Source: a candidate division TM6 bacterium GW2011_GWF2_43_87 | Lineage (GTDB): Bacteria; Babelota; Babeliae; Babelales; Babelaceae | Direction: 5' to 3' | Length of the DNA stretch: 64,000 nucleotides | Assembly: GCA_001000065.1 (NCBI GenBank) | Contig: LCGZ01000004.1 | Span: forward strand, 128,867 to 192,866 | In this document: positions 8,853 through 59,992 of the stretch, piece after piece | How positions within the stretch are numbered: position 1 is the stretch's first letter | Layout: the number at the start of each line of letters is the position of its first letter | Program-made: the position numbers and the translations under genes | Notes under the pieces: generated by a model | Seen by the model: the letters and a program-made list of their open reading frames with translations, nothing else | The model's database searches: none | What the model was told of the DNA's origin: nothing

Positions 8853-9548
8853 CTAATCGGGGCAGTGGATATGATGAGCGCAGGGCAATGCAGCCGCTGT
8901 GGATAGGGCTGAAAGACACGAAGGACGTTCTCTACAATTTATCGCTCTCATGTCTGGACGACTCATGGTAGCAAATAGGATTGCCTCATCAAAGGCTTCC
9001 TTGGTTTTAGCGTCATCTAGTGATTTGAAAATAAGCGTAGGCAGGTTTATAGAGTCTGCACTAGGAATTTCGGTTAACGTTTCTATAAATTGTGGGTCAA
9101 TTAGGACGACAACCGCGTGTTCCGGTAAAGCTTCAGGCATATCGGCGCGTGCGACGGGTTTGATGATCCATGAATATTCTTTGATACTTTCGCCATCTTC
9201 CCCTTCCATTTCATATTCACGAGGAATAAGTGTTAGGTCCCACCAGGCACATGGTAGTGTGGTGTCGCGAACCAGGGCAGAGACTGTTTTACCGCGCATT
9301 TTAAAGGTTAAGTAAGGAGTTACAACGAGAGAGAACACCGTAGGGGAACCACACTCAGGAAGCAGCGCGCGGCCTTCACTTAATGACAGTTCAAAGCCCT
9401 TATAATATCCGCATAGTCCATCAATGCTTACTAAGTTAGGCACATGAAGATTCAGCAAGTAGGGACGCGCCGAACTCTGGAGACCATTGTGTACCAAAAT
9501 GGTTGAAATCAGGCCCAAAAGTAGGGGAATTAGCTTAAACAGTTTCAT
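8853..9548 (-). CDS. Hypothetical secreted protein (first gene of the hyp-tsaD-glyA operon)
   Basis: The start is chosen at the internal ATG (MKLFKLIPLLLGLISTILV signal peptide) preceded by AGGAAAGGA. The longer 333-aa ORF would overlap the divergent DUF2062 gene. Confidence 0.5.
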   Translation of the reverse strand: MKLFKLIPLLLGLISTILVHNGLQSSARPYLLNLHVPNLVSIDGLCGYYKGFELSLSEGRALLPECGSPTVFSLVVTPYLTFKMRGKTVSALVRDTTLPCAWWDLTLIPREYEMEGEDGESIKEYSWIIKPVARADMPEALPEHAVVVLIDPQFIETLTEIPSADSINLPTLIFKSLDDAKTKEAFDEAILFATMSRPDMRAINCRERPSCLSALSTAAALPCAHHIHCPD

Positions 9549-9639
9549 GCAAGTATCCTTTCCTATTATACTTAGGGTTAGGATAGCTGAAAAAAACATT
9601 TTTTCAAAATACAAGCTTGTTATAATAAGGAGAGACTGG

Positions 9640-10128
9640 ATGAATTCTTTTGGGAAAAAAATTATAGATCGCTTTGTTAAAAAGGGTGTATCACCACATA
9701 AAGTAGCCTGGTCTTCGTCATGGGGAATGTATTTAGCGTTTTCTCCTTTTCTGGGGATACAGACGATATTGGTATTCATTGTTGCGTTTTTTTTTAGAGC
9801 CCAAGCAAGCGTAGTATTTACGGTTTTGTATACTGTCAATAATCCTTGGACCATGATTCCTATAGTGCTTATGGACTATCTTTTTGGAGTTTGGTTGTTC
9901 CAGATTTTTGGTATTAGTATGGCAGCCTATGAACCTTATTGGATGGGTTGGGTGAATGCAAAGCTTACGCCGTACCTAACTCCATATCTTGGAGTTCAGC
10001 AGCTTAAGATCTGGCCTTACTTGGTAGGTGGGAATATTATTGCTATTATTGCTGCATGCATTACTTATCCCGTTATAAAACGAGTCTATTTGCGTGGATT
10101 TGAGGCTGCCAAAAGACGCGTCGCTTAA
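9640..10128 (+). CDS. DUF2062-family membrane protein
   Basis: AAGGAGAG RBS then ATG at 9640. MNSFGKKIIDRFVKKGVSPHKVAWSSSWGMYLAFSPFLG… matches DUF2062. Confidence 0.6.
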   Translation: MNSFGKKIIDRFVKKGVSPHKVAWSSSWGMYLAFSPFLGIQTILVFIVAFFFRAQASVVFTVLYTVNNPWTMIPIVLMDYLFGVWLFQIFGISMAAYEPYWMGWVNAKLTPYLTPYLGVQQLKIWPYLVGGNIIAIIAACITYPVIKRVYLRGFEAAKRRVA

Positions 10129-10322
10129 ATTATTGCGTTTCATGGTTTTCATTGTCTTATAGAACCAGTCCGTCAGCGCGTTCGAAAAGATATTTTTAAG
10201 CCAATCTTGTAATAAAACACTCAAAGAGCCATTTCTGCGCGCTGTTGAATTTGACAAAAAATCGAGAAGATTTATAGTGTAATTTATATCAATATTAAAG
10301 TGATCAGATGGAGGAATATTTG

Positions 10323-11231
10323 ATGGAAAAGTTTTTTATGAATAAAAAATTGAATCGCATAGTTATAGCTTTATTGTTGGGCGCTTTTGCAGGATTTATT
10401 GAAGCTGCAAATACACAGGCTACTGAAGATTTTTTTAAAGCGGTTAGTCAAAAAGACTTTGTTGCAGCTGATCAGGCTATTGCAGATGGTGCGGATATAA
10501 ATGGGGTTGATACGTTAGGCCGCACGCCTCTTCATTGCGCTACAGAGATAGATAATAATATTGAAGCCATTAAATATTTGGTTGGCAAGGGTGTGGACGT
10601 TGATAAAATCAATTACACGACACTTTGTCCGCCTTTGTACGAGGCGCTGAAGCGTGGAGATTTTGAAGCTATAGAATGTTTAGTTGGTGCAAAAGCTAAT
10701 ATAAAACTCCCTTATACCACTAACACTGCGTGGAATTTTCTTCATGATGCTGCGAGGGAAAATTGGAAGGTTTCAGTTATAAAATATTTAATTGAGCAGG
10801 GCTTAAATATTGATCAAGCTAATACTGCGGGTGAGACCCCTTTGCATCTTGCTGCACAGAACGGAAATGAAGCCGTTGTCAGGTGCTTGGTTGAAGCGGG
10901 GGCTTCTATTTCTTTAAAGAATGTGAACAATAAAACACCTCGCGATGAGGCGGTCGAAAATAAACAGTCTCTTGTAGTTGATTATTTAGATAGTTTTTCT
11001 TTGTCTTCTTCGCTTTCTTCCAAAATGAGAGCGTTTGTAAGTCGGCATAAAGTGTTGATAAGCGGTATTTCTGCGGTAGCAATTTTGGCTGCAGGTGCGC
11101 GTTTGTGGTATGCTCGTCGCCGTAGGTTGCCATTTATTCCGTCTTTTTGGGGTAAGCGAGGCCTTCCGTTTGTGTCAAAGGTGTCATCTACTCATGGGGT
11201 GATTACGCCCAATCTGTTTTCACGCGTATAA
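10323..11231 (+). CDS. Ankyrin-repeat protein with signal peptide and conserved C-terminal TM-plus-tail module (array member 1)
   Basis: GGAGGAA RBS. MEKFFMNKK…FAGFIEA signal peptide. ANK repeats. C-terminus ISGISAVAILAAGARLWYARRRRLPFIPSFWGKRG…. Confidence 0.8.
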   Translation: MEKFFMNKKLNRIVIALLLGAFAGFIEAANTQATEDFFKAVSQKDFVAADQAIADGADINGVDTLGRTPLHCATEIDNNIEAIKYLVGKGVDVDKINYTTLCPPLYEALKRGDFEAIECLVGAKANIKLPYTTNTAWNFLHDAARENWKVSVIKYLIEQGLNIDQANTAGETPLHLAAQNGNEAVVRCLVEAGASISLKNVNNKTPRDEAVENKQSLVVDYLDSFSLSSSLSSKMRAFVSRHKVLISGISAVAILAAGARLWYARRRRLPFIPSFWGKRGLPFVSKVSSTHGVITPNLFSRV

Positions 11232-11269
11232 GCTTTAAATAAGAGCCTGTGAATAGGGAGGAGTCTTTG

Positions 11270-12163
11270 ATGGAAAAATTTTTTATTCATAAAAAATTTA
11301 ATCGCATAGTTATAGCTTTATTGCTGGGCGCTTTTGCAGGATCTGTTAAAGCTGCAAACACACAGGCTACTGAAAATTTTTTTGAAGCGGTTAATCAAAA
11401 AGACTTTGTTTCAGCTGATCAGGCTATTGCAGATGGTGCGGATATAAATGGGGTTGATAAATTAGGCCGTACTCCTCTTCATTGCGCTACAGAAATAAGT
11501 AATAATATTGAAACCATTAAATATTTGGTTGGCAAGGGTGTGGACGTTGATAAAATCCATAACAAGACACGTTGTCCGGCTTTGTACGAGGCGCTGAAGC
11601 GTGGAGATTTTGAAGCCATTGAATGTTTGGTTGGTGCAAAAGCCAATATAAAACTCCCTTATATCAACACGTGGAATTTTCTTCATGATGCTGCGACGGA
11701 AAATTGGAGCGCTTCAGTTGTAAAGTATTTAATTGAGCATGACTTAAACATTGATCAAGTTAATGTTGCGTATCAGAGCTCTCTGCATATTGCTGCACGG
11801 GAAGGAAATTATGGCATTGTCAAGTGCTTGGTTGAAGCGGGAGCCTCTATTTCTTTAAAGGATGAGAACAATAAAACACCTCGCGATTTGGCGGTCGAAA
11901 ATAATCATTCTCTTATAGTTGATTATTTAGATAGTTTTTATGTGCCCTTTTATAAAATGAGAGCATTTGTAAGGCGGTATAAAGTGTTGATAAGCGGTAT
12001 TTCTGCGGTAGCAATTTTGGCTGCAGGTGCGCGCGGGTGGTATGCTCGTCGTAATAGGTTGCCATTTATACCGTCTTTTTTGGGTAAACGAGGCCTTTCG
12101 TCCGTGTCAAAGGTGCCATCTACTCATGGGGTGATTACGCCTAATCTGTTTTCACATGTATAA
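11270..12163 (+). CDS. Ankyrin-repeat protein, array member 2 (close paralog of 10323..11231)
   Basis: N-terminus and C-terminus nearly identical to member 1. ANK repeats. Confidence 0.8.
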   Translation: MEKFFIHKKFNRIVIALLLGAFAGSVKAANTQATENFFEAVNQKDFVSADQAIADGADINGVDKLGRTPLHCATEISNNIETIKYLVGKGVDVDKIHNKTRCPALYEALKRGDFEAIECLVGAKANIKLPYINTWNFLHDAATENWSASVVKYLIEHDLNIDQVNVAYQSSLHIAAREGNYGIVKCLVEAGASISLKDENNKTPRDLAVENNHSLIVDYLDSFYVPFYKMRAFVRRYKVLISGISAVAILAAGARGWYARRNRLPFIPSFLGKRGLSSVSKVPSTHGVITPNLFSHV

Positions 12164-12226
12164 GCTTTAAATAGGTGGGATTTTAGATTATAGGGTAAAG
12201 AGCCCGTGAATATGGAGGAATATTCA

Positions 12227-13309
12227 ATGGAAAAGTTTTTTATGAATAAAAAACTAAATTGCGTAGTTATGGCTCTGTTGCTGGGCGTTTTTGCAGGATC
12301 TGTTGAAGCCACTAACAATCAAAATGCTCAGGCTGATAAAGATTTTTTAAGGGCTATTGCTGATCGCAATTGTGGCGCGGCTGCTCAGGCTCTTAATAAT
12401 GGGGCGAAGATAGATGGGACTGGCGACTGGACTCCGCTTCATTATGCCGCTCTTCATGGCTGGGGCGTTAACGTGGTTCAATTTCTTATTGATAATGGTG
12501 CCAACGTTAATCAGATTAATAATAATGACGACACTCCTTTGTCATTGGCGTTTGAGCTTGGACATGTTGATATAGTGCGTTGCTTGGTTGAAGCAGGTGC
12601 CGACATAAATCAAACTGATAAGGTGGGATGGAGTCTACTTCATTATGCTGCATTTAATGGGTGGGACTTTGCATGTTTCAATTATTTGGTTAGTAAGGGC
12701 GCGGATATTCAAAAAATTAGTGATGACAATGATTCTCCGTTGTCTTGTGCTTTTCAAAGTGGGTATCTTGATGCGGCTCGTTGTTTAATAAAAGCTGGTG
12801 CTTCTATAAATGTTATTGCTCCAGATGGTAGTAACTTGCTTCATCGTGCTGCCTATGATAATTGGAATGTGAAAAGTGTTAAATATCTGATTGAGCAGGG
12901 TGTGGCTATTGATAAAGTCAATAATAATAACGAGACGCCTTTATTGTTGGCAGCGCAGAGGGGTCACCTTGACGTTGTTCGGTGTTTGGTTGAAGCAGGA
13001 GCTTCTTTCTCTATAAAGAATACTGCGGGTCAAACAGCCCGCGATTTGGCAGTCCAGGGAATACATCCACTGGTAGTTAGTTATTTAGATAACCCATTTT
13101 TAAAGTTATATAGAGCAAAAGCGTTTGTAAAAAGGCATAAATTTTCACTAACAGCGACTGCCACTTTGGCCACAGTAGGTGTTCGTTGGTGGTATGCTCG
13201 TCGCCATGGGTTGTCATTTGTGCCATCATTTTTTAGTAGGCGGGGCTTCTTTTCAGTTTCAAAGATGACGCCTGTTCAAATAGCCCCGCGCACGCAGTTT
13301 TGTCTGTAG
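12227..13309 (+). CDS. Ankyrin-repeat protein, array member 3
   Basis: MEKFFMNKK signal peptide. Multiple ANK repeats. C-terminus RWWYARRHGLSFVPSFFSRRG…. Confidence 0.8.
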   Translation: MEKFFMNKKLNCVVMALLLGVFAGSVEATNNQNAQADKDFLRAIADRNCGAAAQALNNGAKIDGTGDWTPLHYAALHGWGVNVVQFLIDNGANVNQINNNDDTPLSLAFELGHVDIVRCLVEAGADINQTDKVGWSLLHYAAFNGWDFACFNYLVSKGADIQKISDDNDSPLSCAFQSGYLDAARCLIKAGASINVIAPDGSNLLHRAAYDNWNVKSVKYLIEQGVAIDKVNNNNETPLLLAAQRGHLDVVRCLVEAGASFSIKNTAGQTARDLAVQGIHPLVVSYLDNPFLKLYRAKAFVKRHKFSLTATATLATVGVRWWYARRHGLSFVPSFFSRRGFFSVSKMTPVQIAPRTQFCL

Positions 13310-13313
13310 GTTG

Positions 13314-13940
13314 TTAATCAGTAACTTTAAGTATAACGTCGGGTGCCGTTAGAGCATACGGTACTCCTTTGGCTGTTAATATCATGCCATCTTCATTGAT
13401 GAGAGTTATCTCTCTTCCCACAGAGCCTTGAGCTAACCATTTTCCTTTTTCATCAATTAAAACAAGCTGTTCAGGCTTCCCTCGTAGACTATTTTCGCCT
13501 GGTACACCCGTGGCAAATTTGGCATCTACGTCAACGCGTCGGATATTAGATAAGGATTGACCGCGATAGTTTCCATCAACCCAGATATCTAGAGGTTTAT
13601 GTTTGTTGCCTTCAAATTCAACACGAGCTCCACGCAACACGTGTTTGTCAAAAATGCCTCCAAAGACATTGAGTTCTAAATGTCCAATCCAGTCGTACAT
13701 CACGGCTTTGCCTGGTTCTACGGTTATGATTCTATCGGAAAAGACAAATCCTTTAGATAGTGTTTCTCGTGCTGTTTCTGTCCAAATGTAAGGTTTTATA
13801 AATACCCTACCTTTGGTGAAGTTCTCAAAATATATATCAATGTTAGGGGCAAACGGGTTGGCGTTTGCTTGTATTAGGGATCCACAAAAGAGTGGAATGA
13901 TAATTAAAAAAAATCTATTTTTCATAATGGTTTTCCTCAT
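13314..13940 (-). CDS. Secreted hypothetical protein, triplet paralog A
   Basis: Signal peptide. Conserved core KPYIWTETAR…VMYDWIGHLE…RGARVEFEGN…IWVDG is shared with the next two genes. Confidence 0.6.
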   Translation of the reverse strand: MRKTIMKNRFFLIIIPLFCGSLIQANANPFAPNIDIYFENFTKGRVFIKPYIWTETARETLSKGFVFSDRIITVEPGKAVMYDWIGHLELNVFGGIFDKHVLRGARVEFEGNKHKPLDIWVDGNYRGQSLSNIRRVDVDAKFATGVPGENSLRGKPEQLVLIDEKGKWLAQGSVGREITLINEDGMILTAKGVPYALTAPDVILKVTD

Positions 13941-14527
13941 TTTGATTTAAAGACAAATTCAGCATCTGGTGATGCTAAGGGATAACTGACACCGCGAATG
14001 GATACTTTAAGTGTTTCATCGTCAATAGAATCTTCTTGCCATACTTCTGCTCCATTTGCTATCCAGCTTCCCGAGAGGGTTGGCTTTTCTGCAGGTCCTT
14101 TTAGAGCATTGATACCGATGGTGTCTTTTGCCAGGAATGTTCCCGCGATGATGCCTCTTACAAAGCCTTTTGTGATTGCACCATACCAAATTTCGATGGC
14201 AGGGTGACTGTTATCCAAAAATTCTACTCGAGCACCGCGAATAATCTGTCTAAAAGGACTTATCTCCCCACTGACTATCCAATCAAACATGACGGATTCT
14301 TGTGGATTTACAAAGTAAGGTTTTCGGTTTGAGTTGATTATCCATCCATTTGGAGTCCAGACATAGGGAAGTGCTTTTAAGGTTGTGGTAGGTAAAAGAT
14401 TTTTTATCCACCCTTCTGCACTAAGATTGGGGGAGGATTTTATAGGCGCTATAAATGCAAAAGCAGCTCCGATTAAAAGGAGGCTTGGATGCATTGCCAT
14501 AATTATCCATCGATAAAGATTTTTCAT
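13937..14527 (-). CDS. Secreted hypothetical protein, triplet paralog B
   Basis: Signal peptide. LPYVWTPNGW…VMFDWIVSGE…RGARVEFLDN…IWYGA. Confidence 0.6.
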   Translation of the reverse strand: MKNLYRWIIMAMHPSLLLIGAAFAFIAPIKSSPNLSAEGWIKNLLPTTTLKALPYVWTPNGWIINSNRKPYFVNPQESVMFDWIVSGEISPFRQIIRGARVEFLDNSHPAIEIWYGAITKGFVRGIIAGTFLAKDTIGINALKGPAEKPTLSGSWIANGAEVWQEDSIDDETLKVSIRGVSYPLASPDAEFVFKSK

Positions 14528-14538
14528 GATTTAATCCT

Positions 14539-15150
14539 TTATATTTTTTTGAATAAGAAGCGTACGTCTGGTGATTGAGTAATGGGGTAAGCGACGCCCT
14601 CAGCCGCAATTAAAAGACCTTCGCCTTTATAAAATTCAATACGATTTTCCTTGAATCCCTGAGCCATCCACCAATTTTTTGCATCTTTTAGAACGGGCTG
14701 ATCAGGATGACCTACAATACACCCTTGTCCTATGACGGGCGTTGCAAGAGAGACGCAGGCTTCGGCGCGTCGAACATTTATTAAAGGTCCATCTCCACTA
14801 AAGGTAGCTGCAAACCAGATTTCAAAATTTCTGTCACCGACCTGAACAAGTGCACCTTTCATAAATGTTTTTCCAAAGGCGGCTGCTATTCCCGATGCTT
14901 CAATTCCCCAAATCCAGTCAAACATTACGCGTTCACCGGGCTTTACAATATAGGGAGCGCGGGCTGTATTTAAGACCCACCCTTTTGAATTTGTGTCTCG
15001 AGCCGCAGCGGTCCAGACAAATGGCTTGACTATAACATCTTGGTCAAAGTCATTGTGAATCCAACCCTGAAGATTGCCGTCCGTATTCGCGTTTGCAAAG
15101 AACGAACATAACAGAATGACTAGAGGTACATAATTTAATTTATTCCACAT
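14539..15150 (-). CDS. Secreted hypothetical protein, triplet paralog C
   Basis: Signal peptide. KPFVWTAAAR…VMFDWIWGIE…KGALVQVGDRNFEIWFAA. Confidence 0.6.
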   Translation of the reverse strand: MWNKLNYVPLVILLCSFFANANTDGNLQGWIHNDFDQDVIVKPFVWTAAARDTNSKGWVLNTARAPYIVKPGERVMFDWIWGIEASGIAAAFGKTFMKGALVQVGDRNFEIWFAATFSGDGPLINVRRAEACVSLATPVIGQGCIVGHPDQPVLKDAKNWWMAQGFKENRIEFYKGEGLLIAAEGVAYPITQSPDVRFLFKKI

Positions 15151-15410
15151 GAAACCTACTCCTTTTGGTTTTATTTAGTTTTTATAGTATCCATCTCTTA
15201 TTTTAGACTAACAAAATTCATTTCAATTTTGCAATAAAAACATTGAAAAAGTCGGGCATTTTTCCCTTGTTTTTGACAAAAAAGAAGATTGTTTTATACT
15301 ATAGTTCATGTTGTATGCTTGGCACCAATGTCACTAAATTTCCAGCGAGTCAAAATTAAGAATGTTCTCGCCATTGCATTCAGCAAGAACATTTTATGGA
15401 GGAAAATTCG

Positions 15411-17750
15411 ATGATTAAGAAAAGTTTATATCTATTTCTTTTGCTACCACTTTGTCTGTTTGTTTTTTCCATGCGCGCTATGGAAATTAATGAAAAGCCT
15501 GTTCCTGGTGATGCCGAGCCTGAGATTCAAGAGAAAGAAGTAGTAATTGATCAAGAGGAGACTCTTTTTCAATTGATAGAGGCTGGTGATACACAGAAAT
15601 TTTTAGAGGTGTTTTCAGAGCAGCTATTAAAAAAAGATATTGATTTAGAGTATTTTAGAGAAGAGGATCATCAAACACTTCTTTCACTTGCTGCGAGCAA
15701 GGGAAATATTACGGTAGCTAAGGCGCTTATAGATGCCGGAGCTATGATTGATAATAATAACAAAAACAACGACCTGCCAATAGAAGGAAACGGTCGTTTA
15801 CCTTTGCATGAGTCTATAGAGCATGGACAGCTTGAAATGATTAAGTATTTAATTTGTAACTTTTCTCTTATGCGAGATAAAAAAGCCGCCATGTCTAAAC
15901 GCATTGCTTTTTTGTCCTGTAATATAGACCCGTTTAATGGCAAAACTCCATTGCATAAAGCCGTTGAATCTGGATCTTGTCAAATTACACAATTCCTTTT
16001 GGATAGCTTTATAGAAAGTTTTAAGGATAAAGAGTTAGGCGCGCATGAATGCGCGATTAACTTTATGAGTATTACTGACTATGCCGGAGAATCTGCGTTG
16101 CACCGGGCTGTTGTGAGTGGTAACATTGAAATGGTTAAGCTTCTCATACATTATTTTTCTTCTACATTATTTGAAGTTGTTAACGGGAACGTGATTTCAT
16201 TAAAAAATTTTGTGAACGCATACTCAATTCGAAGTGCCCGTTGTATAGCAGGGGGGCTTGCGCCGCTGCATATGGCTGTAAAAAATAATGATCTTGCTAT
16301 GGTCAAATGTTTGGTGGAAAGCGGTGTCGGTGTTGAGATAGATGCGCAGGATGATTGGGGGCTGACTCCGGTGCAGAGAGCGGCGACATGTGGCTATTTT
16401 GAGATAGTCACATATTTGCTCGAAAAGGGAGCGGATCTGTTTTGTCCTAGCTTTGCCATGGAGGATGGAAAGCAACTGTTTTTTAATCGGATGAAGGAGC
16501 AGCGGGAAAAGTGGGAAGTAGAGCTTCTTGCAACCGTCAAGTCTCTTGCGACTGCTGAGTTGGAGAAATGCGAGATTGAGCAGGAGCTTAAGAAGGGTGA
16601 AAGAGAGCCTTTGTGCTGTGTGCCCTTGAAGAAGCGGTTGCTTAGACGGGAGCAATTGCTTAAGGTGTTTGCGCAGAAAAAAATAGAACTAGAGCAGCAG
16701 ATAAAAAATATGTCGCAGACGCTACTATTTTTGGAAACACAATTTCCTGATGAGCATAAAGAGAAGGTTAAAGAAGCGAAAATTAATGAAGAGCCCGTTG
16801 TTGTTGATGCTGAGCTCGTGGCATTGTGTCCAGATGAACTTCTGTTCACGGCATTAGAAAGAGGGGTCTTGCAAGAGGTTAAGCACGCCCTTGAAGAGAA
16901 ATTTGCAAATATTGAAGGGTGTGATGCCTATGCGTGCACGCCTCTTTTGGCTGCTGCGTCTAAGGCTGGTCCTGCTTATGTTACTATTGTAAAGTATTTG
17001 ATTGATCAGGGTGCTGATTTGACGGCCGTTGATTTTTACAAAAATTCGGCTCTCCATTTAGCTGCTTTGAATGAAAATATGGGGACGATTAGGGTTCTGC
17101 TTGAAGCAGGAGTTTCGTGCGATGCTGTAAATAGTGAAAATGTTTCGGCAGGAGCAATGGTTGCAAAGGCAGCGGCATTTGATGCGGTTGATTCTGGTGA
17201 TATTAATCGCGTTCGAGGAGTAATCGGCGCGCAAATGCCAATAGATACCTTGGCAAACAAACGCGGGGAAAAGCTTTTACATTGTGCGGTTTTGACGGGG
17301 AGTTGTGACGTTGTACGTTTCTTAGTTGTTGAGCGAAGTGCAACTATTAATGTTGTGGATGCTAATGGAAATACACCAATGCACAATCTTGCATGTATGA
17401 TAAACCCTGCTCCCATTATGAATTTTTTGCTTCAGTTTAACCCGGATGTTAATAAGAAAAATAATGCAGGCCTAACCCCTTTGGATCTAGCTGTTAAAGA
17501 GAATAACTTAGAAGTACAACAGATCTTTAAGGGATATGCTGCGCGGCGGCAGCCTAGCTCATTATGGGGGAAGAGATGGTTTAAGGGGTTTGTTGTAGGC
17601 GGGAGTATTTTTGCAGGCATGAGCTTGCGGTGGTGGTATGCGCGTCGGCATGGCGTGTCTTTTATACCTAAATTTAATTGGTTTGGTAAGCAGAGAATTT
17701 CTGCAATGCCAAAGGTAACAGGTCCAGTTATTGCACCAATGGCTGTATGA
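15411..17750 (+). CDS. Large ankyrin-repeat protein (~780 aa) with signal peptide, central coiled-coil-like region and the conserved C-terminal module (array member 4)
   Basis: GGAGGAAAA RBS. Many ANK repeats in two blocks. C-terminus LRWWYARRHGVSFIPKFNWFGKQRISAMPKVTGPVIAPMAV. Confidence 0.8.
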   Translation: MIKKSLYLFLLLPLCLFVFSMRAMEINEKPVPGDAEPEIQEKEVVIDQEETLFQLIEAGDTQKFLEVFSEQLLKKDIDLEYFREEDHQTLLSLAASKGNITVAKALIDAGAMIDNNNKNNDLPIEGNGRLPLHESIEHGQLEMIKYLICNFSLMRDKKAAMSKRIAFLSCNIDPFNGKTPLHKAVESGSCQITQFLLDSFIESFKDKELGAHECAINFMSITDYAGESALHRAVVSGNIEMVKLLIHYFSSTLFEVVNGNVISLKNFVNAYSIRSARCIAGGLAPLHMAVKNNDLAMVKCLVESGVGVEIDAQDDWGLTPVQRAATCGYFEIVTYLLEKGADLFCPSFAMEDGKQLFFNRMKEQREKWEVELLATVKSLATAELEKCEIEQELKKGEREPLCCVPLKKRLLRREQLLKVFAQKKIELEQQIKNMSQTLLFLETQFPDEHKEKVKEAKINEEPVVVDAELVALCPDELLFTALERGVLQEVKHALEEKFANIEGCDAYACTPLLAAASKAGPAYVTIVKYLIDQGADLTAVDFYKNSALHLAALNENMGTIRVLLEAGVSCDAVNSENVSAGAMVAKAAAFDAVDSGDINRVRGVIGAQMPIDTLANKRGEKLLHCAVLTGSCDVVRFLVVERSATINVVDANGNTPMHNLACMINPAPIMNFLLQFNPDVNKKNNAGLTPLDLAVKENNLEVQQIFKGYAARRQPSSLWGKRWFKGFVVGGSIFAGMSLRWWYARRHGVSFIPKFNWFGKQRISAMPKVTGPVIAPMAV

Positions 17751-17765
17751 GTTTTTTAAAATGGA

Positions 17766-18446
17766 ATGGGATTTTTGTTAGCGGCATTACTCTGTTCTTT
17801 TGCAGGGTTTGTTAAAGCTCAAGATACAAGAAGTCAGGTCACTGAAGAGTTTATGGATGCCGTTGATAACTCTGACTTTAATTTAGCCGACGAAAAGTTA
17901 GCACATGGTGCAGACATAAATGGGGCTGACAAAGATGGATGGGCTGCTTTGCACTTTAGGGCTTTGTCAGGTGATTTGCGTGGTGTGTGGTATTTGTTTG
18001 CTTGTCATGCAAATATAAATCAAAAGAATGTTGAGGGTAAAACTCCTTTGCATTTGGCGGCAGCATATGGCCATCTTGGCGTTGTAAAATATTTAGTTGA
18101 ACAAGGTGCCGATATTTTTAGTAAGGACAATGACGGGAAAACTGCTCGGGATCTTGCAGCTGATGGTAAGCATCAACTGGTGGTTAGCTATTTAACTAGT
18201 GCTGTTATATGGCAGGCGCGCCTAGATAGAAGCCGTAGTTTTGATAAATCCCGTGGTTTTTTAGAGAGCCGTAAGGATTTAATGGTCTGTTTTTCTGCAG
18301 CGGCAGTTCTTGTGGTTGGTTTGCGCTGGTGGTATGCGCGTCGGCATGGTCTGTCTTTTATACCTAAAATCAATTGGTTTGGTAGGCAGAGAATTTCTGC
18401 AATGCCAAAGGTAATGGGTCCCGTTATTGCATCAATGGCTGTATGA
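17766..18446 (+). CDS. Ankyrin-repeat protein, array member 5 (short leader)
   Basis: ANK repeats plus C-terminus RWWYARRHGLSFIPKINWFGRQRISAMPKVMGPVIASMAV. The leader MGFLLAALLCSFAGFVKA is shortened relative to member 6. Confidence 0.7.
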   Translation: MGFLLAALLCSFAGFVKAQDTRSQVTEEFMDAVDNSDFNLADEKLAHGADINGADKDGWAALHFRALSGDLRGVWYLFACHANINQKNVEGKTPLHLAAAYGHLGVVKYLVEQGADIFSKDNDGKTARDLAADGKHQLVVSYLTSAVIWQARLDRSRSFDKSRGFLESRKDLMVCFSAAAVLVVGLRWWYARRHGLSFIPKINWFGRQRISAMPKVMGPVIASMAV

Positions 18447-18461
18447 GTTTTTTAAAATGGA

Positions 18462-19154
18462 ATGGGATTGTTTATGAATAAGATATTAAATAGCATGTTG
18501 TTAGCGGCATTACTCTGTTCTTTTGCAGGGTTTGTTAAAGCTGAAGATACAAGAAGTCAGGTCACTAAAGAGTTTATGGATGCAGTTCGTAACTCTGACT
18601 TTAACTTAGCCGACGAAAAGCTAGCAAATGGTGCAGACATAAATGGGGTTGATGAAGATAGTTGGATTGCTCTTGGTGACCGCGCTTTTTTCGGAAAATT
18701 GGATGCAGTTAAGTATTTAATTGACCATAATGCAGATATTGAAAGCGGATATAGTAGTAATTGTCAAACTCCACTGAGCCTCGCCGCAGAGGAAGGGGAG
18801 TTTGAGGTTGCAAAGTATTTGGTTGAAGCGGGTGCTGATATTTACAGCAGAGATGAAGATGGTAAAACTCCGCGCGATTTTGCAGTTGAAAAAACCCATC
18901 AACGGGTAGTTGATTATTTTGATAACCTCACTTTTTTGCAGCGGCGTTTTTATAAAATCAGAGCCGTCGTAAAAAGACATAAAATTTTATTAGCTAGTCT
19001 TTCGACAGCGGCAGTTCTTGCGGGCGGCTTGCGGTGGTGGTATGCACGTCAGCATGGTGTGCCTTTTATACCTAAATTCAATTGGTTTGGTAAGCAGAGA
19101 ATTTCTGCAATGCCAAAGGTAACAGGTCCAGTTATTGCACCAATGGCTGTATGA
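18462..19154 (+). CDS. Ankyrin-repeat protein, array member 6
   Basis: Signal peptide MGLFMNKILNSMLLAALLCSFAGFVKA. ANK repeats. Conserved C-terminus. Confidence 0.75.
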   Translation: MGLFMNKILNSMLLAALLCSFAGFVKAEDTRSQVTKEFMDAVRNSDFNLADEKLANGADINGVDEDSWIALGDRAFFGKLDAVKYLIDHNADIESGYSSNCQTPLSLAAEEGEFEVAKYLVEAGADIYSRDEDGKTPRDFAVEKTHQRVVDYFDNLTFLQRRFYKIRAVVKRHKILLASLSTAAVLAGGLRWWYARQHGVPFIPKFNWFGKQRISAMPKVTGPVIAPMAV

Positions 19155-19169
19155 GTTTTTTAAAATGGA

Positions 19170-20036
19170 ATGGGATTTCTCTGTTCTTTTGCAGGGTTTG
19201 TTAAAGCTGAGGAAGAAGATACAATAAGCCAGGTTACTGAAGAGTTTATAGATGCAGTTGATCACTCTGACTTTAACTTAGCCGACGAAAAACTAGCAAA
19301 TGGTGCAGACATAAATGGGGCTAATAAAGGTTGGACGGCTCTTGATGGCGGCGCTTTTTCCGGAAAATTGGACGCAGTTAAGTATTTAATTGATCGTAAT
19401 GCAGATATTGAAAGCGGACATAGTAGTGATTGTCAAACTCCATTGAGCTACGCCGCAGAGGAAGGGGCGCTTGAGGTTGTAAAGCATTTGGTTAAAGCGG
19501 GTGCCTGTATTGAAAGTCACAAGTATGGGAAAACTCCATTGAGCTACGCCGCAGAGAAAGGGAAGCTTGAGGTTGTAAAGTATTTAGTTGAAGCGGGTGC
19601 CTATATTGAAAGTGGAGCTAGTGATGATAAAACTCCACTGGACTTCGCCGCAGAGGCAGGGGAGCTTGAGGTTGTAAAGTACTTGGTTGAAGCGGGTGCC
19701 TATATTGGAAGTGGAGATAGTGACGATTATCAAACTCCGCGCGATCTTGCGGTTGAAGAAAACCACCAACTGGTAGTTGATTATTTTGATAGCCTCACTT
19801 TTTTGCAGCGGCGTTTTTATAAAACCAGAGCCGTCGTAAAAAGACATAAAATTTTATTAGCTAGTCTTTCGACAGCGGCAGTTCTTGCGGGCGGCTTGCG
19901 GTGGTGGTATGCACGTCAGCATGGCGTGTCTTTTATACCTAAATTCAATTGGTTTGGTAAGCAGAGAATTTCTGCAATGCCAAAGGTAACAGGTCCAGTT
20001 ATTGCATCAACGAATGTTTTGCCTAAGTTTATATAA
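19170..20036 (+). CDS. Ankyrin-repeat protein, array member 7 (very short leader, near-identical internal ANK repeats)
   Basis: Contains 4 near-identical 33-aa ANK units (TPLSYAAE[EK]G.LEVVK.LV.AGA.IES…). The conserved C-terminus diverges only in its last 10 aa. Confidence 0.7.
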   Translation: MGFLCSFAGFVKAEEEDTISQVTEEFIDAVDHSDFNLADEKLANGADINGANKGWTALDGGAFSGKLDAVKYLIDRNADIESGHSSDCQTPLSYAAEEGALEVVKHLVKAGACIESHKYGKTPLSYAAEKGKLEVVKYLVEAGAYIESGASDDKTPLDFAAEAGELEVVKYLVEAGAYIGSGDSDDYQTPRDLAVEENHQLVVDYFDSLTFLQRRFYKTRAVVKRHKILLASLSTAAVLAGGLRWWYARQHGVSFIPKFNWFGKQRISAMPKVTGPVIASTNVLPKFI

Positions 20037-20092
20037 AATTAGCTTAGGGCGATGGATTAAGGTAGTTGATTTAGAGATCGGTGGGGGTTGAT

Positions 20093-21220
20093 ATGTGTAG
20101 ATGTTTGGCCAAACGATTTTTGTTGTTGTCGCTTATGACTGGTTTGATGGTGCATATGCCTGCAGATGCAGTAAGATGGTTTGATTTTAAACTGTCAGAA
20201 CAGACTAAGGCTCGGGTAAAAAAGGCATCTTTGGGTGTTTTTGGTTTTGGTGCTTTGGCATGGGCAGGAGTACGTTTGTGGCCACATCCCAACCGTAATG
20301 GGAGTGACCATCGTGCCGTGAAAGCGCTTGGCTTTGACCCTTGTCTAACCGAATATTGTAAGAGTGGGGCTCGAACGGAAACTGCCGTTGTTTTTGCTCA
20401 TGGATTTGGCAATCAGGCTATTTCGTCTAGTGATGAACGGGTTATGTCAGATGTATACACAGGCGTGGTGTTTGAATTTGCCGATTCGCGGCGTTTTAAA
20501 CCATTTGGATATCGTTGTGCTAATTTGGGTGGTGAGTTTGATTTAAGAACCTTGCTTTATGTGTTGGTTCGTTGCCGTGAGATGGGTTATAAGCAGATTG
20601 TATTATGGGGTGAATCACGCGGTGGTGCAACGGTGTTAAGGGCCTTGCATGCTCTTACAAAACCGCGGCTATATGAGAAAAGCTGGAGGGCTTTAGGTGT
20701 TTTAACAGAGTCTGAGGATTTAGATTTTGTTACGATTCGCGAGCTTAGAAAGATGGTTGAAATGGGGCGCGTGATACTTGCACAACCTTTGCTTAGTACT
20801 CATTCTGTTCTTAGAAAAATGGCTCGAGATAAAGTTAAATGTGCAACTCCGCGCTGTTGCCATTCTCTCATTGGTCCTGTTAATTACGTTGGGCACGTGG
20901 TTATAGAAGCGGTCTTTGCAGCGCTGACTAACTACAATCCTTTTATAGAAACACCGTTAGTACTTCTTAAAGATTTAGCTTTTACTTCGAAAGCTGAAAA
21001 CCCACAGTTTTCAATTTTTATGACGTTGCGTGATCAAGATGGGGTGATCGGTAATGAGCTTGATGATGAGGTTATTAAGCTTTCCGCTAAGATGAAGAAT
21101 AAGTCAACCGTTAGGCTTATGGTGGTAAAAGACCCTTCTGCGGGAACGGGTTTTGAAAATCATACCAACGTTAAAAAGGCCACAAAATATCTACAGCTTA
21201 TCGCTTCGGGACTGGAATAA
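20093..21220 (+). CDS. Alpha/beta-hydrolase fold protein (esterase/lipase-like) with N-terminal hydrophobic segments
   Basis: GGTGGGGG RBS. HGFGNQ (oxyanion-hole-like) and GESRGG (GxSxG nucleophile elbow) motifs. Confidence 0.5.
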   Translation: MCRCLAKRFLLLSLMTGLMVHMPADAVRWFDFKLSEQTKARVKKASLGVFGFGALAWAGVRLWPHPNRNGSDHRAVKALGFDPCLTEYCKSGARTETAVVFAHGFGNQAISSSDERVMSDVYTGVVFEFADSRRFKPFGYRCANLGGEFDLRTLLYVLVRCREMGYKQIVLWGESRGGATVLRALHALTKPRLYEKSWRALGVLTESEDLDFVTIRELRKMVEMGRVILAQPLLSTHSVLRKMARDKVKCATPRCCHSLIGPVNYVGHVVIEAVFAALTNYNPFIETPLVLLKDLAFTSKAENPQFSIFMTLRDQDGVIGNELDDEVIKLSAKMKNKSTVRLMVVKDPSAGTGFENHTNVKKATKYLQLIASGLE

Positions 21221-21290
21221 TAAGTGCAGAAGCTTTACCTTTTCAAACCCTCTGTCGTATACTAAATAGTAAGCAGAGGGATTTGAATTT

Positions 21291-21752
21291 ATGAAGATAA
21301 TAACGCAGAACAAAAAAGCTTTTTTTGATTATACAGTACTGGAAACCTTTGAGGCAGGAATTGCATTGACGGGCGACGAGGTTAAATCCTTGCGTGCGGG
21401 TAATGCTAACTTGGTGGGCGCTTTTGTTACTCCTCATGCAGGTCGCCTTTCTATGATTAATGCGTATATTGGGCCTTATTCACACGCATATCAAAAGACC
21501 AATGACAATGAATCTCGTCGGACGCGGTATCTGTTATTGCATCGGCGCGAGATAAACAAGCTTATGGGAGAAGTTTCTCGTGGTGGAGTAACTCTTATCC
21601 CTCTAAAACTCTATTTCAATGATCGTGGATTTGTAAAAGTAGAGATTGGTCTATGTAAGCACAAAAAAGCCCATATGAAAAAAGAAGAGCTCAGGGAGCG
21701 TGACATTAAGCGTGACACGCAGCGTGAGCTCAGAGGGAAATACGATTATTAA
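21291..21752 (+). CDS. smpB: SsrA-binding protein
   Basis: Typical SmpB sequence: FDYTVLETFEAGIALTGDEVKSLR… with a basic C-terminal tail. Confidence 0.9.
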   Translation: MKIITQNKKAFFDYTVLETFEAGIALTGDEVKSLRAGNANLVGAFVTPHAGRLSMINAYIGPYSHAYQKTNDNESRRTRYLLLHRREINKLMGEVSRGGVTLIPLKLYFNDRGFVKVEIGLCKHKKAHMKKEELRERDIKRDTQRELRGKYDY

Positions 21753-23337: not shown

Positions 23338-23776
23338 GGGGGCGTACTGGCTTCGACGCGTTGTGCCTGTTGCAGAGAGCATGTCGAGCTTTGGTTTTGT
23401 GCTCGTTAAACAAAATACCAAAACAATAAGTGCAGCGACTAATATCCCTGCCGGTAGCTTATTTGCCTTGCTTCTTTCGGGCTTAATTGCACTCTTTGGT
23501 GCAGTTGCTCCTAGGAAACAAGAAGCTTTTGCTTAAAGCGTAAGCTACTACCTCTTTTTCGTGGCGTGTCCATCAGCTGCGTTTAAAGAGTATTACCAAG
23601 ATGGAACTGACACATAAGATTTTTTCGTTGTGGTAATGTGTCTGATCACTATAACGGGCTATCGCATTTTTCTCGTGTCTCTACGGGAATGCAGATAGTA
23701 TAATTAGAGAATAAGCATGTAGCGCTGGGCAATTGACAGGGCGTGGACATGGGTTCGACTCCCATCGCCTCCACCA
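23338..23776 (+). ncRNA. ssrA: tmRNA (transfer-messenger RNA, SsrA)
   Basis: 5' GGGGGCGTACTGGCTTCGACG pairs with 3' …GGGTTCGACTCCCATCGCCTCCACCA to form an acceptor stem with the G3-U70 alanine identity pair. There is a T-arm and an encoded CCA. The internal tag reading frame ends …KQEAFA-TAA (23432..23536). It lies about 1.6 kb from smpB. Confidence 0.85.
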
Positions 23777-37847: not shown

Positions 37848-40034
37848 ATGAGGAAGATAGTACTAGGTGTCATTCTGTTAAATACCTCTTGTGCTAATGC
37901 TTTATTTGAAACGCTTTCTGAATGTAAGAATTTTGCAAATACATACAGGGAAGATGTAGAGTGTGATAATTGTAGTTGGAGGGATCCCTCGTACTCGACC
38001 TTTTATGGTTCTGTGAGAGTCGGTTTTTTCAAACGTCTTTTAAAAAAGCTTGGAATAAAAGCGGGTGTGTGGGATTTATTGGAACTTAAGCAGCCCATTG
38101 GTAGAATAGTTCAACGTTTTAATGTGACGAAACAACAACGTTCTTGGACCCCTGAGATAACGGTTGAAGAGGGCGTAAATCTTTTTGTATGGGGTGATTT
38201 ATATGGAGCGTTTCATTCTTTTCTTCGTGATCTTGATGAACTTGCAGCACGGAAAGTGCTAAGTGAGCAACTTAAGATAAATAGTAAAACAGATTATCTA
38301 GTGGTATTAGGGAATGCGATTAATTATTCTCCTTATTCTTACCCCTTGCTTACTCTGTTACTTTCTCTGATTGAAAAAAACCCTGAGCATTTTATTTATA
38401 TACGAGGTCCTCAGGAAACTGCTGCTCACTGGAAAGATTTTTATGTAATGCGTAAGCCTCTTGTAGACCTTGGAAAGCAGCAGGGTTTTGATGTGAAAGG
38501 GAAGTTGCCGCTTGAGGACGAGTTGAATACATTTTTTGGTACCTTGCCAGATGGTGTTCTTTTTAGGCATAAAAAAGCTGAGGATCTATGTTGTCTTTCC
38601 CATTCAATAATATCGCGAAAGTTATTTTTTGACCCCAAGGTTCAGGCCGCATTGATGGGGAAATCCAGGATTGATACATATTGGTCTAATAATGGACTTG
38701 AGTTTTCAGGATTCGAGGGCAATGCTGCAACATGGTCTCTCTTTTCAGCTCCTGTGGGAATTTATCAGAAGGCTGTGAATTTCTATAGTGATAGTTTTGT
38801 AGCGGTACATGTCGGAAAGTCATTCGCGCAGAGCACTATGTCTCTATTTTCTCGCGATATTCGTTTGGTGGAAAATTTTAAGGAGCAGGTTTTTTCATTG
38901 TCTGTGGGGATGAAAATTGATCCGAGAAAAAAAACTCAAGAAATCCCGATTTTCTCGATTGGATCTACTATGCCGCTGACGGGGGGGTTGATGCCTTTAG
39001 GCGTTTCTGTAAAGCAAGGAGTTGAAGCGGCTTTTAGGAAGGTTAATGATTTGGGCGGTGTTGATGGTTATTTTTTGAAGCTTGTAATATTAGATGATCG
39101 CTATTCTCCTGGAATAGCTAGGGCAAATGTTGATCTTTTATTAAAAAAATTTGGAATTCAGACATTGATTTGTCCTGTTGGAACTCCCACTCTAAATGCT
39201 TATTTGGATCTAGTGCGCGCTGGAAAGGTGTGGGTGTTTTATCCGATTACGGGTAGTGAATTCTTTAGATCTCCAGACCTTGGAAATATTGTTAACCAAC
39301 CCTATGGTAATGATACAAAGGCTTTGATGAAATTTATGGCTTCAACCCATAAATTTGAGCAATATGCTATAGTTTATCCTCGAGATCTTTACGGAAACTT
39401 GTTGATGGAGCAGGCTCAAGATGTTCTTAAGAGTTATGGCATAAATGATGTTTTATTATTTCCTGTCTCTCCCAAACAGAGAGATTTTAAAGAAATAGTG
39501 AAAAAATTGAAAGAAGCGGATCCAGAAGTATTAGCTATCTTTTTGGCTTCAGGATCTATGGCTTCATCTTTCTTAAGTCAACTTGGTAATGCTTTTCTTG
39601 GGGGAAAGAATTTGGCTGCTCTTGCCTATTTGGATGATGCAAACTTTGGGCCGTTTTTACATAAAACGGGGTTAAAGTTTAATTTTTCGTATTTACTTCC
39701 AAATCCTTATGGAAGTGACTTTGCATTTTTAAGAGACTACCGGGAGCATTTGAAACGGTATGATGGCCCTATTGACGTTAATTCATTAGAAGGATTTTTG
39801 GGTGCAACTTGTTTTGTTGAAGCAATGAAGAAAGTTGGAAAACCATTTGCCCCTTCTGCTATTAATGATTATCTAACGCATTTAAATCCATTTCCTATCA
39901 AAGGTTTTTTGACCCTTGAGAAGGATCCTCTAACGGGAAAGCGTTATCTTCCTGTTAGCATAAAAAACGATGAGAATGAGTGGATAATGTTGAATAATCT
40001 ACAAGAGGACCATGATTTATCCAAGAGGAAATAG
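37848..40034 (+). CDS. Secreted two-domain protein 1: N-terminal PPP-family Ser/Thr phosphatase-like (calcineurin/PP1-like, degenerate motifs) fused to a C-terminal type-I periplasmic binding protein (LivJ / ANF-receptor-like)
   Basis: Signal peptide. WGDLYGAFHSF (GDxHG-like), VVLGNAINYSPYSY (GDxxDRG-like, D->N), and YIRGPQE (GNHE-like). C-terminal half IGSTMPLTGGLMPLGVSVKQGVEAAFRKVNDLGGVDGYFLKLVILDD… has a LivJ-like pattern. Confidence 0.65.
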   Translation: MRKIVLGVILLNTSCANALFETLSECKNFANTYREDVECDNCSWRDPSYSTFYGSVRVGFFKRLLKKLGIKAGVWDLLELKQPIGRIVQRFNVTKQQRSWTPEITVEEGVNLFVWGDLYGAFHSFLRDLDELAARKVLSEQLKINSKTDYLVVLGNAINYSPYSYPLLTLLLSLIEKNPEHFIYIRGPQETAAHWKDFYVMRKPLVDLGKQQGFDVKGKLPLEDELNTFFGTLPDGVLFRHKKAEDLCCLSHSIISRKLFFDPKVQAALMGKSRIDTYWSNNGLEFSGFEGNAATWSLFSAPVGIYQKAVNFYSDSFVAVHVGKSFAQSTMSLFSRDIRLVENFKEQVFSLSVGMKIDPRKKTQEIPIFSIGSTMPLTGGLMPLGVSVKQGVEAAFRKVNDLGGVDGYFLKLVILDDRYSPGIARANVDLLLKKFGIQTLICPVGTPTLNAYLDLVRAGKVWVFYPITGSEFFRSPDLGNIVNQPYGNDTKALMKFMASTHKFEQYAIVYPRDLYGNLLMEQAQDVLKSYGINDVLLFPVSPKQRDFKEIVKKLKEADPEVLAIFLASGSMASSFLSQLGNAFLGGKNLAALAYLDDANFGPFLHKTGLKFNFSYLLPNPYGSDFAFLRDYREHLKRYDGPIDVNSLEGFLGATCFVEAMKKVGKPFAPSAINDYLTHLNPFPIKGFLTLEKDPLTGKRYLPVSIKNDENEWIMLNNLQEDHDLSKRK

Positions 40035-40046
40035 TGAGGAGGTAGT

Positions 40047-42266: not shown

Positions 42267-42283
42267 TTGTGAGGGGTTAGAAT

Positions 42284-59810: not shown

Positions 59811-59992
59811 ATTGCACCTTTCTTTTGAATAAAACATTATCCGATGCTTTGTATGTGACCTACACCATTATACACTCTTTATTTTATCCCAGTTTTTTTT
59901 CGCGCTAACTCGGCTTCGCCTCCGGTTCTTCGCGCTTTAGGGTAGCATTCATCCTCAGGTTTAAAAAGACCTGGGGTTTTTTGCTTGGTTTT

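Follow-up and report, generated by a model that had tools for sequence, protein, structure and literature searches.

A family of ankyrin-repeat proteins in a Dependentiae bacterium that share a C-terminal helix-and-tail module, a candidate membrane tether

Background

Dependentiae (candidate division TM6) are widespread, mostly uncultured parasites of protists. We describe here seven ankyrin-repeat (ANK) genes, A1 to A7, in a 64,000-nucleotide stretch of the genome of a groundwater Dependentiae bacterium belonging to the Babeliales (GW2011_GWF2_43_87; contig LCGZ01000004.1, positions 128,867 to 192,866), hereafter called the window. Their products end in a common module of about 66 amino acids (aa), in which a hydrophobic helix leads into a basic and aromatic tail, and which may tether exported ANK domains to a membrane.

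The most closely comparable proteins are found in the same phylum. ANK proteins with Sec leaders are usual in Dependentiae, and include 79 of 126 in Babela massiliensis (PMC4378268) and 78% of 98 in Chromulinavorax destructans (PMC6561590). Like the proteins of the window, they combine a Sec leader with ANK repeats, belong to large lineage-specific expansions and are presumed to interact with the host. However, the papers on these two organisms describe no C-terminal helix-plus-tail module, which defines the family here, whereas three other ANK proteins of the window follow the plain leader-ANK pattern.

ANK proteins with transmembrane (TM) domains are known from Wolbachia, also an intracellular bacterium, where they are encoded by 25 of the 60 ANK genes of wPip. 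The tandem Wolbachia genes ANK38-41 also resemble the array in that neighbours are most similar in their non-ANK part, and they arose through duplication and recombination (PMC2515876). Unlike the proteins of the window, the Wolbachia TM-ANK proteins have no sequence similarity to the module, carry a signal peptide in only 1 of 25 cases, occur in a bacterium with a type IV secretion system (T4SS), and do not have the conserved core of the module after the TM segment. Rickettsia RARP-1, together with Pseudomonas aeruginosa AnkB and Bdellovibrio Bd3460, shares the combination of Sec leader and ANK repeats, and was found experimentally to be periplasmic and not secreted into the host (10.1101/2022.02.23.481736). 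RARP-1 differs in being soluble in the periplasm, with a long disordered region and no C-terminal anchor, and its homology to the present family is confined to the ANK repeats.

Other known C-termini share parts of the layout. Type II secretion system (T2SS) substrates that carry a GlyGly-CTERM signal recognized by rhombosortase, such as VesB of Vibrio cholerae, have a Sec signal, a passenger domain, a C-terminal helix and positive residues (PMC6219818, PMC3237569), but the proteins described here have no Gly-Gly, score below threshold, and end in a conserved tail of 36 to 42 residues rather than in a few basic ones. TM effectors of type III secretion systems (T3SS) and of T4SS have segments of reduced hydrophobicity, avoid the inner membrane or pass through it transiently, and have host membranes as their final location (PMC6110835, PMC11602083). 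Such effectors lack a Sec leader and require a T3SS or T4SS, neither of which has been reported in Dependentiae. The proteins also do not fit the definition of tail-anchored proteins, since a leader is present and the segment beyond the apolar run exceeds the limit of about 30 residues. What is new at this locus is therefore the C-terminal module itself, which is without described relatives; leader-ANK expansions and TM-ANK paralogues were already known.

Results and discussion

Seven paralogues with a common architecture

Seven plus-strand open reading frames (ORFs), spanning positions 10308 to 20036, encode ANK repeats followed by the module (Table 1). All seven match the Pfam models Ank, Ank_2, Ank_3, Ank_4 and Ank_5 above gathering scores (Ank_2 E values of 5e-20 to 6e-60). 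When three of the tails were used as tblastn queries, exactly seven copies of the module were detected in the window, with E values from 1e-4 to 1e-43 and nothing else below 0.05, so their likeness is far beyond chance. A preliminary description of this DNA, made from the sequence alone, had proposed a tandem array of seven genes with a common leader-ANK-helix-tail architecture. Pfam matches, tail alignment and tblastn all bear out the architecture, with the qualification that the leaders of A5 and A7 are short in this assembly. The seven genes are present as described, but they are not contiguous: three unrelated genes on the minus strand divide them into two sub-arrays, A1-A3 and A4-A7. These intervening genes are themselves tandem paralogues (28-34% identity) whose products are about 200 aa long, have leader-like N-termini and lack a Pfam match.

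The leaders resemble Sec signal peptides cleaved by signal peptidase I, as judged by sequence inspection and hydropathy. Each has a Lys/Arg n-region, an apolar core of 12 to 15 residues (Kyte-Doolittle values of 1.6-2.1 for the h-region) and small residues at positions -3 and -1. The c-regions read VKA, IEA, VEA, MRA or IVA, and predicted cut sites include VKA/ED, IEA/AN and MRA/ME, where the slash marks the cut. By these measures the leaders qualify as Sec signal peptides, and the truncation of those of A5 and A7 is particular to this assembly. Three other signals were considered and dropped: the leaders do not end in the [GAS]-Cys of a lipobox, the paired arginines follow the helix rather than preceding it as in a Tat motif, and a Cys near the C-terminus that might suggest a CaaX box occurs only in A3, at position -2.

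The same array is found in four independent assemblies. A6 is identical in GCA_003506475.1 (contig DOAP01000002.1), and the A1 protein is identical to HBL98241.1 and belongs to the KKT23374.1 cluster. Compared with GCA_003506475.1, the window lacks 27 nucleotides (nt) near 17776 (L001 9289-9315) and 40 nt near 19178 (L001 10711-10750), both within the leader-coding DNA, of A5 and A7 respectively. The 226-aa A5 and 288-aa A7 are thus the forms of the GW2011 assembly. Because three other assemblies of the same species have full leaders, the short forms are a peculiarity of assembly or strain and not a feature of the family. Either repeated DNA collapsed during assembly, or strains vary and the export of these two proteins is disabled in this one.

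Homology extends over the whole length of the proteins, including the leader, an N-terminal cap (Q-x-T-x-x-F…GADING), the last repeat and the module, and it is the number of repeats that differs most. From these alignments, the seven are one paralogous family rather than as unrelated ANK proteins that acquired a shuffled module. A4 is an exception, as only its end is common to the rest of the family. From the LRWWY codons onward its tail is encoded by DNA of the A5-7 type, with a sharp similarity boundary at 17623 in both DNA alignment and repeat search, and this tail looks as if it has been recombined in. Between the two ANK blocks of A4 lies a Glu/Lys-rich, coiled-coil-looking region (residues ~350-480) without a Pfam match.

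The ANK domains are acidic (net charge -5 to -30). In an AlphaFold2 model of A6, calculated from a nine-sequence family alignment, the ANK domain (residues 28-155) forms paired-helix repeats with predicted local distance difference test (pLDDT) values of 83-95.

Anatomy of the module

The module can be aligned in all seven proteins, with K, R, W, Y, A, R, F and P at invariant positions. A basic juxtamembrane stretch, for example RRFYKIRAVVKRHK, succeeds the final ANK repeat (…VVDYLDS) and leads into an apolar run, the core and a distal tail. The apolar run comprises 14 to 16 residues and is rich in Ala, Gly, Ser and Thr. In the nine known members, which include two from a second contig described below, it is bracketed by Lys on the N-terminal side (Asp in A5) and by Arg on the C-terminal side. 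The core conforms to R-x-W-Y-A-R-R-x3-[S/P]-F-[I/V]-P-[K/S]-[F/I]; examples are RWWYARRHGVSFIPKF in A4, RLWYARRRRLPFIPSF in A1, RLWYARRTGGSFIPKI in the foreign protein P0006 and RLKYAKNHNISFFPSI in its neighbour. Approximately 25 further residues, basic, aromatic and proline-containing, lie beyond the core. In total, 36 to 42 residues separate the apolar run from the C-terminus, and this post-helix part has a net charge of +6 to +9, no Asp or Glu, 5 to 9 aromatic residues and 3 to 5 prolines.

The preliminary description had pointed to a hydrophobic helix with a conserved basic and aromatic tail, and hydropathy and structure prediction agree. In the A6 model, a single continuous helix of 41 residues (158-198; pLDDT 54-70) extends from the basic stretch through the apolar run to RWWYARQ, whereas the 27 residues from 204 to 230 are unstructured (pLDDT <50). 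Because the alignment is shallow, the prediction for the tail is weak evidence.

Relation to known domains and distribution

The preliminary description could assign the module to no family, and our searches lead to the same result. Six representative tails compared with Pfam-A and NCBIfam at E values up to 10 yielded only sub-threshold matches that were inconsistent between members, the best Pfam match having an E value of 0.012 and 15 bits, where the cut-off is 25. Among NCBIfam sortase and CTERM models, the best scores were 10.5-11.8 bits, against cut-offs of 27-30, and these were for A1 only; the other tails match none. GlyGly-CTERM (TIGR03867) scored 11.7 bits against a cut-off of 19.7, with a K/R-rich stretch in the pre-helix position and a long tail after the helix. 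A1 also bears an insignificant resemblance to the Tom70 anchor (E 0.04). These similarities of A1 reflect a generic likeness of the "helix plus basic residues" kind.

The same comparisons bear on the idea that the module is a cleavable sorting signal in the manner of GlyGly-CTERM and rhombosortase. The exported protein would then stay in the inner membrane until an intramembrane protease cut the module off, freeing the ANK domain for transfer to the cell surface or for release. The tripartite layout of passenger, Gly/Ser/Ala-rich helix and basic cluster is suggestive, as is the weak, sub-threshold likeness to several CTERM and sortase-signal models. Moreover, the phylum has no secretion system besides the T2SS (PMC4378268), and GlyGly-CTERM proteins depend on Sec and the T2SS and are located at the surface (PMC6219818). 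However, the Lys/Arg-rich sequence ahead of the helix contains no Gly-Gly, LPXTG or PEP motif; CTERM and sortase models reach only 10-12 bits against cut-offs of 20-30; and known signals end a few residues past the helix, where the present proteins have a long conserved tail. No rhomboid or exosortase gene was detected among those proteins of the 64-kb window that were scanned. We consider this explanation improbable. A gene of the CPBP/Rce1-like intramembrane protease family, the type of enzyme that a processed anchor would need, lies about 35 kb from the array.

An exhaustive hmmsearch with a profile of the tail against 1.84 billion representative proteins (50% identity) returned six matches: four genes of the same species, one spurious repetitive ORF and one true relative. 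P0005 (E 4e-24), the spurious match, owes its score to the summing of many weak per-repeat matches along a tandem-repeat ORF of 1732 aa. The relative, P0006 (293 aa, E 6e-9), has a leader, ANK repeats and the module. It is encoded on L002, a 1.8-kb metagenome contig from ENA (ERZ27284381 k139_920005) with a guanine-cytosine (GC) content of 37%, against 41% in the window, and its identity to members of the array is 35-47%. Upstream of P0006 is the 3' part of a gene that ends in a more divergent module and whose ANK part most resembles the final portion of A4 (41% across 98 aa). Downstream of P0006, a third gene begins. The order of members is thus that of the window, an A4-like gene and then an A5-7-like gene in tandem.

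Further searches yielded no additional members. A word-index protein search with the seven-tail alignment found nothing, not even the window's own proteins, which we attribute to the shortness of the profile, as HMMER recovered them. A tail pattern had 47 matches among GTDB representative genomes, none of which was confirmed (evidently the source species is not itself represented there), and a scan of viral contigs (IMG/VR) with the tail gave no match. Inclusion of the divergent tail from the upstream gene of L002 made the alignment too variable for a metagenome pattern. One match in JGI metagenomes (L083, 3230-3334) proved to be a chance look-alike, AAWWYARRHGLPF, in a cytoplasmic loop that follows a TM helix of prolipoprotein diacylglyceryl transferase (Lgt); the organism is GC-rich, and the look-alike of the core is located at the cytoplasmic membrane interface. 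Generic ANK proteins dominated the results of searches with full-length A6 and P0006, and none of them carries the tail (0 of 119); in none of the 119 generic homologues of P0006 do a leader and a C-terminal hydrophobic segment occur together. The three other ANK genes of the window, which bring its total to ten, encode leaders and soluble-looking C-termini and likewise lack the module. The module is therefore the distinguishing feature of the family. It is also absent from all 31 of the other Babeliales smpB neighbourhoods that were inspected.

Conserved core and concerted evolution

The preliminary description had envisaged two outcomes that would reduce the module to something commonplace, namely a match to a known domain or conservation confined to the array. 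The tail matches no known domain, and the profile search places the module on L002 as well. The family is thus genuine and predates the species, but its distribution is very narrow: it is found in one species and on one other contig.

The tail had also been described as far more conserved than the ANK regions. This is true within A4-A7, but across deep branches (A1, A3, A5, A6 and P0006) the mean pairwise identity is 42% for the whole module and 43% for the ANK part. Only the 16-aa core is more conserved (69%), as the juxtamembrane stretch (33%), apolar run (27%) and distal tail (32%) are not. Synonymous sites are saturated between the deep groups A1-2, A3 and A4-7, with a proportion of synonymous differences (pS) of 0.55-0.70. 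For the core, pS between groups is 0.68 and the corresponding nonsynonymous proportion (pN) is 0.27, a pattern that indicates purifying selection on the core alone across the A1-2, A3, A4-7 and foreign-contig branches.

The near-identity of the A4-A7 tails has a different cause. A 152-nt unit is repeated at the gene junctions, with an abrupt beginning at the LRWWY codons; it takes in the 3' end of the tail-coding sequence, the stop codon and the spacer and reaches into the first part of the next leader. Within this repeat, conservation is as high at silent sites and in non-coding bases as at replacement sites, which argues for unequal crossing-over or gene conversion and not for selection on the peptide, and indicates concerted evolution of a tail-spacer-leader unit. 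Accordingly, of the two causes originally proposed for the conservation of the tail, homogenization resembling gene conversion is supported, since the repeat crosses the stop codon, spacer and leader, but selection does not account for the identity in DNA. The reported identity of over 100 bp between members 4, 6 and 7 is not found: exact identity extends no further than 99 nt (A6-A7), 75 nt (A4-A6) and 60 nt (A4-A7), within a unit that is 82-97% identical. A terminator-like hairpin with a T-run lies inside the tail-coding DNA, at the WYARRHGVSF codons, and recurs three times because the underlying DNA is itself repeated.

These data also bear on whether the array is a trivial recent duplication or an assembly artefact with a C-terminus that has no selected function. 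Some of the duplications are indeed recent, with synonymous divergence (dS) of 0.05-0.17 for A1/A2 and A6/A7; A2 is a duplicate of A1 with dS of 0.15-0.17 in the module and elsewhere alike, and the repeats have produced assembly differences between genome versions. Against this, the array is present in four independent assemblies, the core motif has been kept between A1-2, A3 and A4-7 despite saturated synonymous sites, and two tandem members reside on the contig of a different organism, with the GC content and identity noted above. The presence of these foreign members in particular shows that the family is no trivial recent duplication, and we regard such an explanation as highly improbable.

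A candidate membrane tether

A protein with a cleavable leader, then a single C-terminal hydrophobic helix and a basic segment, becomes a single-pass membrane protein with its N-terminal domain outside and its tail inside. A core of Arg, Trp and Tyr is expected at the membrane-water interface, facing acidic lipids. The leader, C-terminal helix and basic segment of A1-A7 fit this export logic, and their core fits the interface, and for these reasons the explanation that we favour, while giving it no more than an even chance, is that the module tethers ANK domains exported through Sec to a membrane, which it crosses once. The leader would carry the ANK domain through Sec across the cytoplasmic membrane, and the C-terminal helix would stop transfer, leaving the N-terminus out and the C-terminus in. 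The Arg/Trp/Tyr core would then sit at the cytoplasmic membrane interface with the tail on or near the inner leaflet, so that the module might hold a diversifying ANK binding surface in place within the cell envelope. The occurrence in every member of the family of both an apolar leader core and a C-terminal hydrophobic segment counts in favour of this arrangement, as does the opposition of basic, acid-free tails to acidic ectodomains. RARP-1 provides a precedent for a Sec-leader ANK protein that is retained in the envelope (10.1101/2022.02.23.481736).

Several properties of the helix weigh against a simple inner-membrane tether. The apolar run is short and only moderately hydrophobic: a Kyte-Doolittle value of 1.6 over 19 residues is reached by A1, A2 and A5 only, and the other four of the seven are marginal. 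The best 19-residue segments have sums of +2.3 to +6.2 kcal/mol in a naive, position-independent use of the Hessa scale, so stop-transfer in the bacterial inner membrane is not assured. In addition, the N-terminal flank, with 4 to 7 Lys or Arg in 15 residues, is as basic as the C-terminal one (5 to 8, with no acidic residue), and as this flank would face the periplasm, the arrangement would be atypical under the positive-inside rule.

The short run, the marginal hydrophobicity and the basic upstream flank fit the possibility that the proteins are targeted to host membranes. They would be exported by Sec, their helix would escape the inner membrane, and after exit through the T2SS or in outer-membrane vesicles the module would, from the host cytosol, attach the ANK domain to the membrane of an organelle or vacuole. 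In this capacity it would act as a tail-anchor or signal-anchor in the style of the mitochondrial outer membrane or of peroxisomes, where a short, moderately hydrophobic helix has basic flanks. Acidic ANK domains are of a type usually directed against cytosolic host targets, and leader-bearing ANK proteins of Dependentiae are generally assumed to be secreted, the T2SS being the sole system found (PMC4378268, PMC4776705). The TM segments of host-membrane effectors, through their reduced hydrophobicity, escape inner-membrane insertion (PMC6110835), and Chromulinavorax remodels host mitochondria (PMC6561590); the insignificant match to the Tom70 anchor is a resemblance in style only. Nevertheless, tail-anchored proteins have no signal peptide, and their helix lies within about 30 residues of the C-terminus, whereas these proteins have a leader and a longer tail, whose +6 to +9 charge would need to cross the host membrane. 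T2SS substrates are folded, soluble periplasmic proteins, for which an exposed apolar helix would be awkward, and the helices of A1, A2 and A5 are hydrophobic enough for ordinary stop-transfer. Targeting to host membranes is the main alternative to the tether, though we consider it rather unlikely.

In published Dependentiae genomes the only secretion system is a T2SS (PMC4378268, PMC4776705). For this reason, and given the Sec leaders of the proteins, T3SS or T4SS signals, for which an assay had been suggested, are unlikely to be present; the predicted Sec leader argues against a cytoplasmic T4SS substrate in particular. A broader proposition is that the module is a new, Dependentiae-specific C-terminal targeting device, either a host-organelle anchor of the mitochondrial or peroxisomal kind on effectors delivered by Sec and the T2SS or by vesicles, or a processed sorting signal that hands proteins tethered in the inner membrane to the T2SS. 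We consider this, too, rather unlikely.

Genomic setting

In approximately 25 of 31 Babeliales loci, tsaD is followed by a small ORF, a DUF2062 gene and then smpB, with a tight junction of about 30-60 nt between the last two. In the window, a lineage-specific insertion of 11.1 kb separates these two genes. It contains the seven ANK genes, the three minus-strand genes for leader-bearing paralogues, and a gene for a 379-aa protein. The nearest relatives of the window's smpB come from Babeliaceae and Babeliales metagenome-assembled genomes. The two closest relatives (L003 and L005) have different families of leader-bearing paralogues at the same spot, which suggests that the junction is a hot spot for lineage-specific exported proteins. 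The array was formed by tandem duplication within the insertion at this variable spot.

The 379-aa protein is encoded on the same strand as the array, starting 45 nt after A7, and has an N-terminal hydrophobic segment and an LWGESRGG motif (GxSxG-like, GESRG). It has no Pfam match, and its best match in PDB has an E value of 0.055; it may be an exported hydrolase. As a candidate client, it lends some substance to the idea that the ANK proteins are envelope-resident inhibitors or chaperones, with the topology of the tether, whose ANK domains bind the bacterium's own exported enzymes for self-protection, in the manner of Bd3460, or to chaperone T2SS substrates. Periplasmic ANK proteins with bacterial partners are known (RARP-1, AnkB and Bd3460; 10.1101/2022.02.23.481736), and tandem diversified arrays look like arrays of immunity genes. 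However, the 379-aa protein is only a putative enzyme, given the search results above, a single candidate client would have to serve seven ANK proteins, and the L002 fragment is too short for a test of linkage. A role of this kind appears remote, on a par with the sorting signal.

The two best sigma-70-like matches in the region are twin sites, one in the spacer ahead of each sub-array. They are consensus matches only, and the overall number of promoter-like matches in the region is not above that in shuffled sequences. Elsewhere in the window, a one-piece tmRNA gene with the predicted tag peptide APRKQEAFA is separated from smpB by two unannotated minus-strand ORFs. Three tandem paralogues of about 730 aa are also present, two of which have far sub-threshold similarity to branched-chain amino-acid binding proteins.

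Table 1. Positions of the array, its repeated elements and other features in the window
Feature	Position	Strand	Remarks
Lineage-specific insertion	10129-21290		11.1 kb, between the DUF2062 gene (9487-10128) and smpB (21291-21752)
Promoter-like site	10251-10278	+	TTGACA-16-TATAGT, 11/12; upstream of A1
Twin promoter-like site	15273-15300		Upstream of A4
A1	10308-11231	+	307 aa; leader, ANK, module; Ank_2 1e-24; alternative ATG at 10323, the position used in the preliminary description
A2	11249-12163	+	304 aa; leader, ANK, module; ORF call, Pfam, tail alignment
A3	12206-13309	+	367 aa; leader, ANK, module; weakly hydrophobic helix FSLTATATLATVGV
A4	15396-17750	+	784 aa; leader, two ANK blocks split by charged region, module
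A5	17766-18446	+	226 aa in this assembly; ANK, module; leader shortened by 27-nt deletion
A6	18462-19154	+	230 aa; leader, ANK, module; protein used for AlphaFold2 model
A7	19170-20036	+	288 aa here, 303 aa elsewhere; ANK, module; leader cut by 40-nt deletion
Module, reference copy (A6)	18954-19151	+	Basic juxtamembrane stretch, K-bracketed 16-aa apolar run, RWWYARQHGVPFIPKF core, distal basic/Pro tail
Module, other copies	11022-11228, 11954-12160, 13112-13306, 17559-17747, 18246-18443, 19821-20033	+
Junction repeat, 152 nt	17623-17774	+	Tail 3' end, stop codon, spacer, start of next leader; repeat search, DNA alignment, blastn
Junction repeat, other copies	18319-18470 (92%), 19027-19178 (97%), 19894-20045 (82%)	+
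Terminator-like hairpins with T-run	17640-17658, 19044-19062, 19911-19929	+	Inside tail-coding DNA
Glu/Lys-rich region of A4	16440-16840
Genes between A3 and A4	13314-15150	-	Three paralogues
379-aa protein	20081-21220	+
tmRNA gene	23338-23776	+
~730-aa paralogues	37848-44485	+	Three in tandem
Other ANK genes	1386-2228, 45923-46816, 58554-59837	-	Without module
CPBP/Rce1-like protease family gene	54930-55772	-

Conclusions

With a family known from one species and one additional contig, the scope of these findings is limited. The locus nevertheless provides an example of how concerted evolution over gene junctions can mimic strong selection on a protein terminus, and an example of the DUF2062-smpB junction as a hot spot for genes of lineage-specific exported proteins. 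As the module is conserved, only about 66 aa long and easily fused to other proteins, it offers a probe that could distinguish retention in the bacterial envelope from placement in host membranes. If it does prove to be a targeting device, it would be the first sequence handle on how effectors are placed on membranes in a phylum without a T3SS or T4SS.

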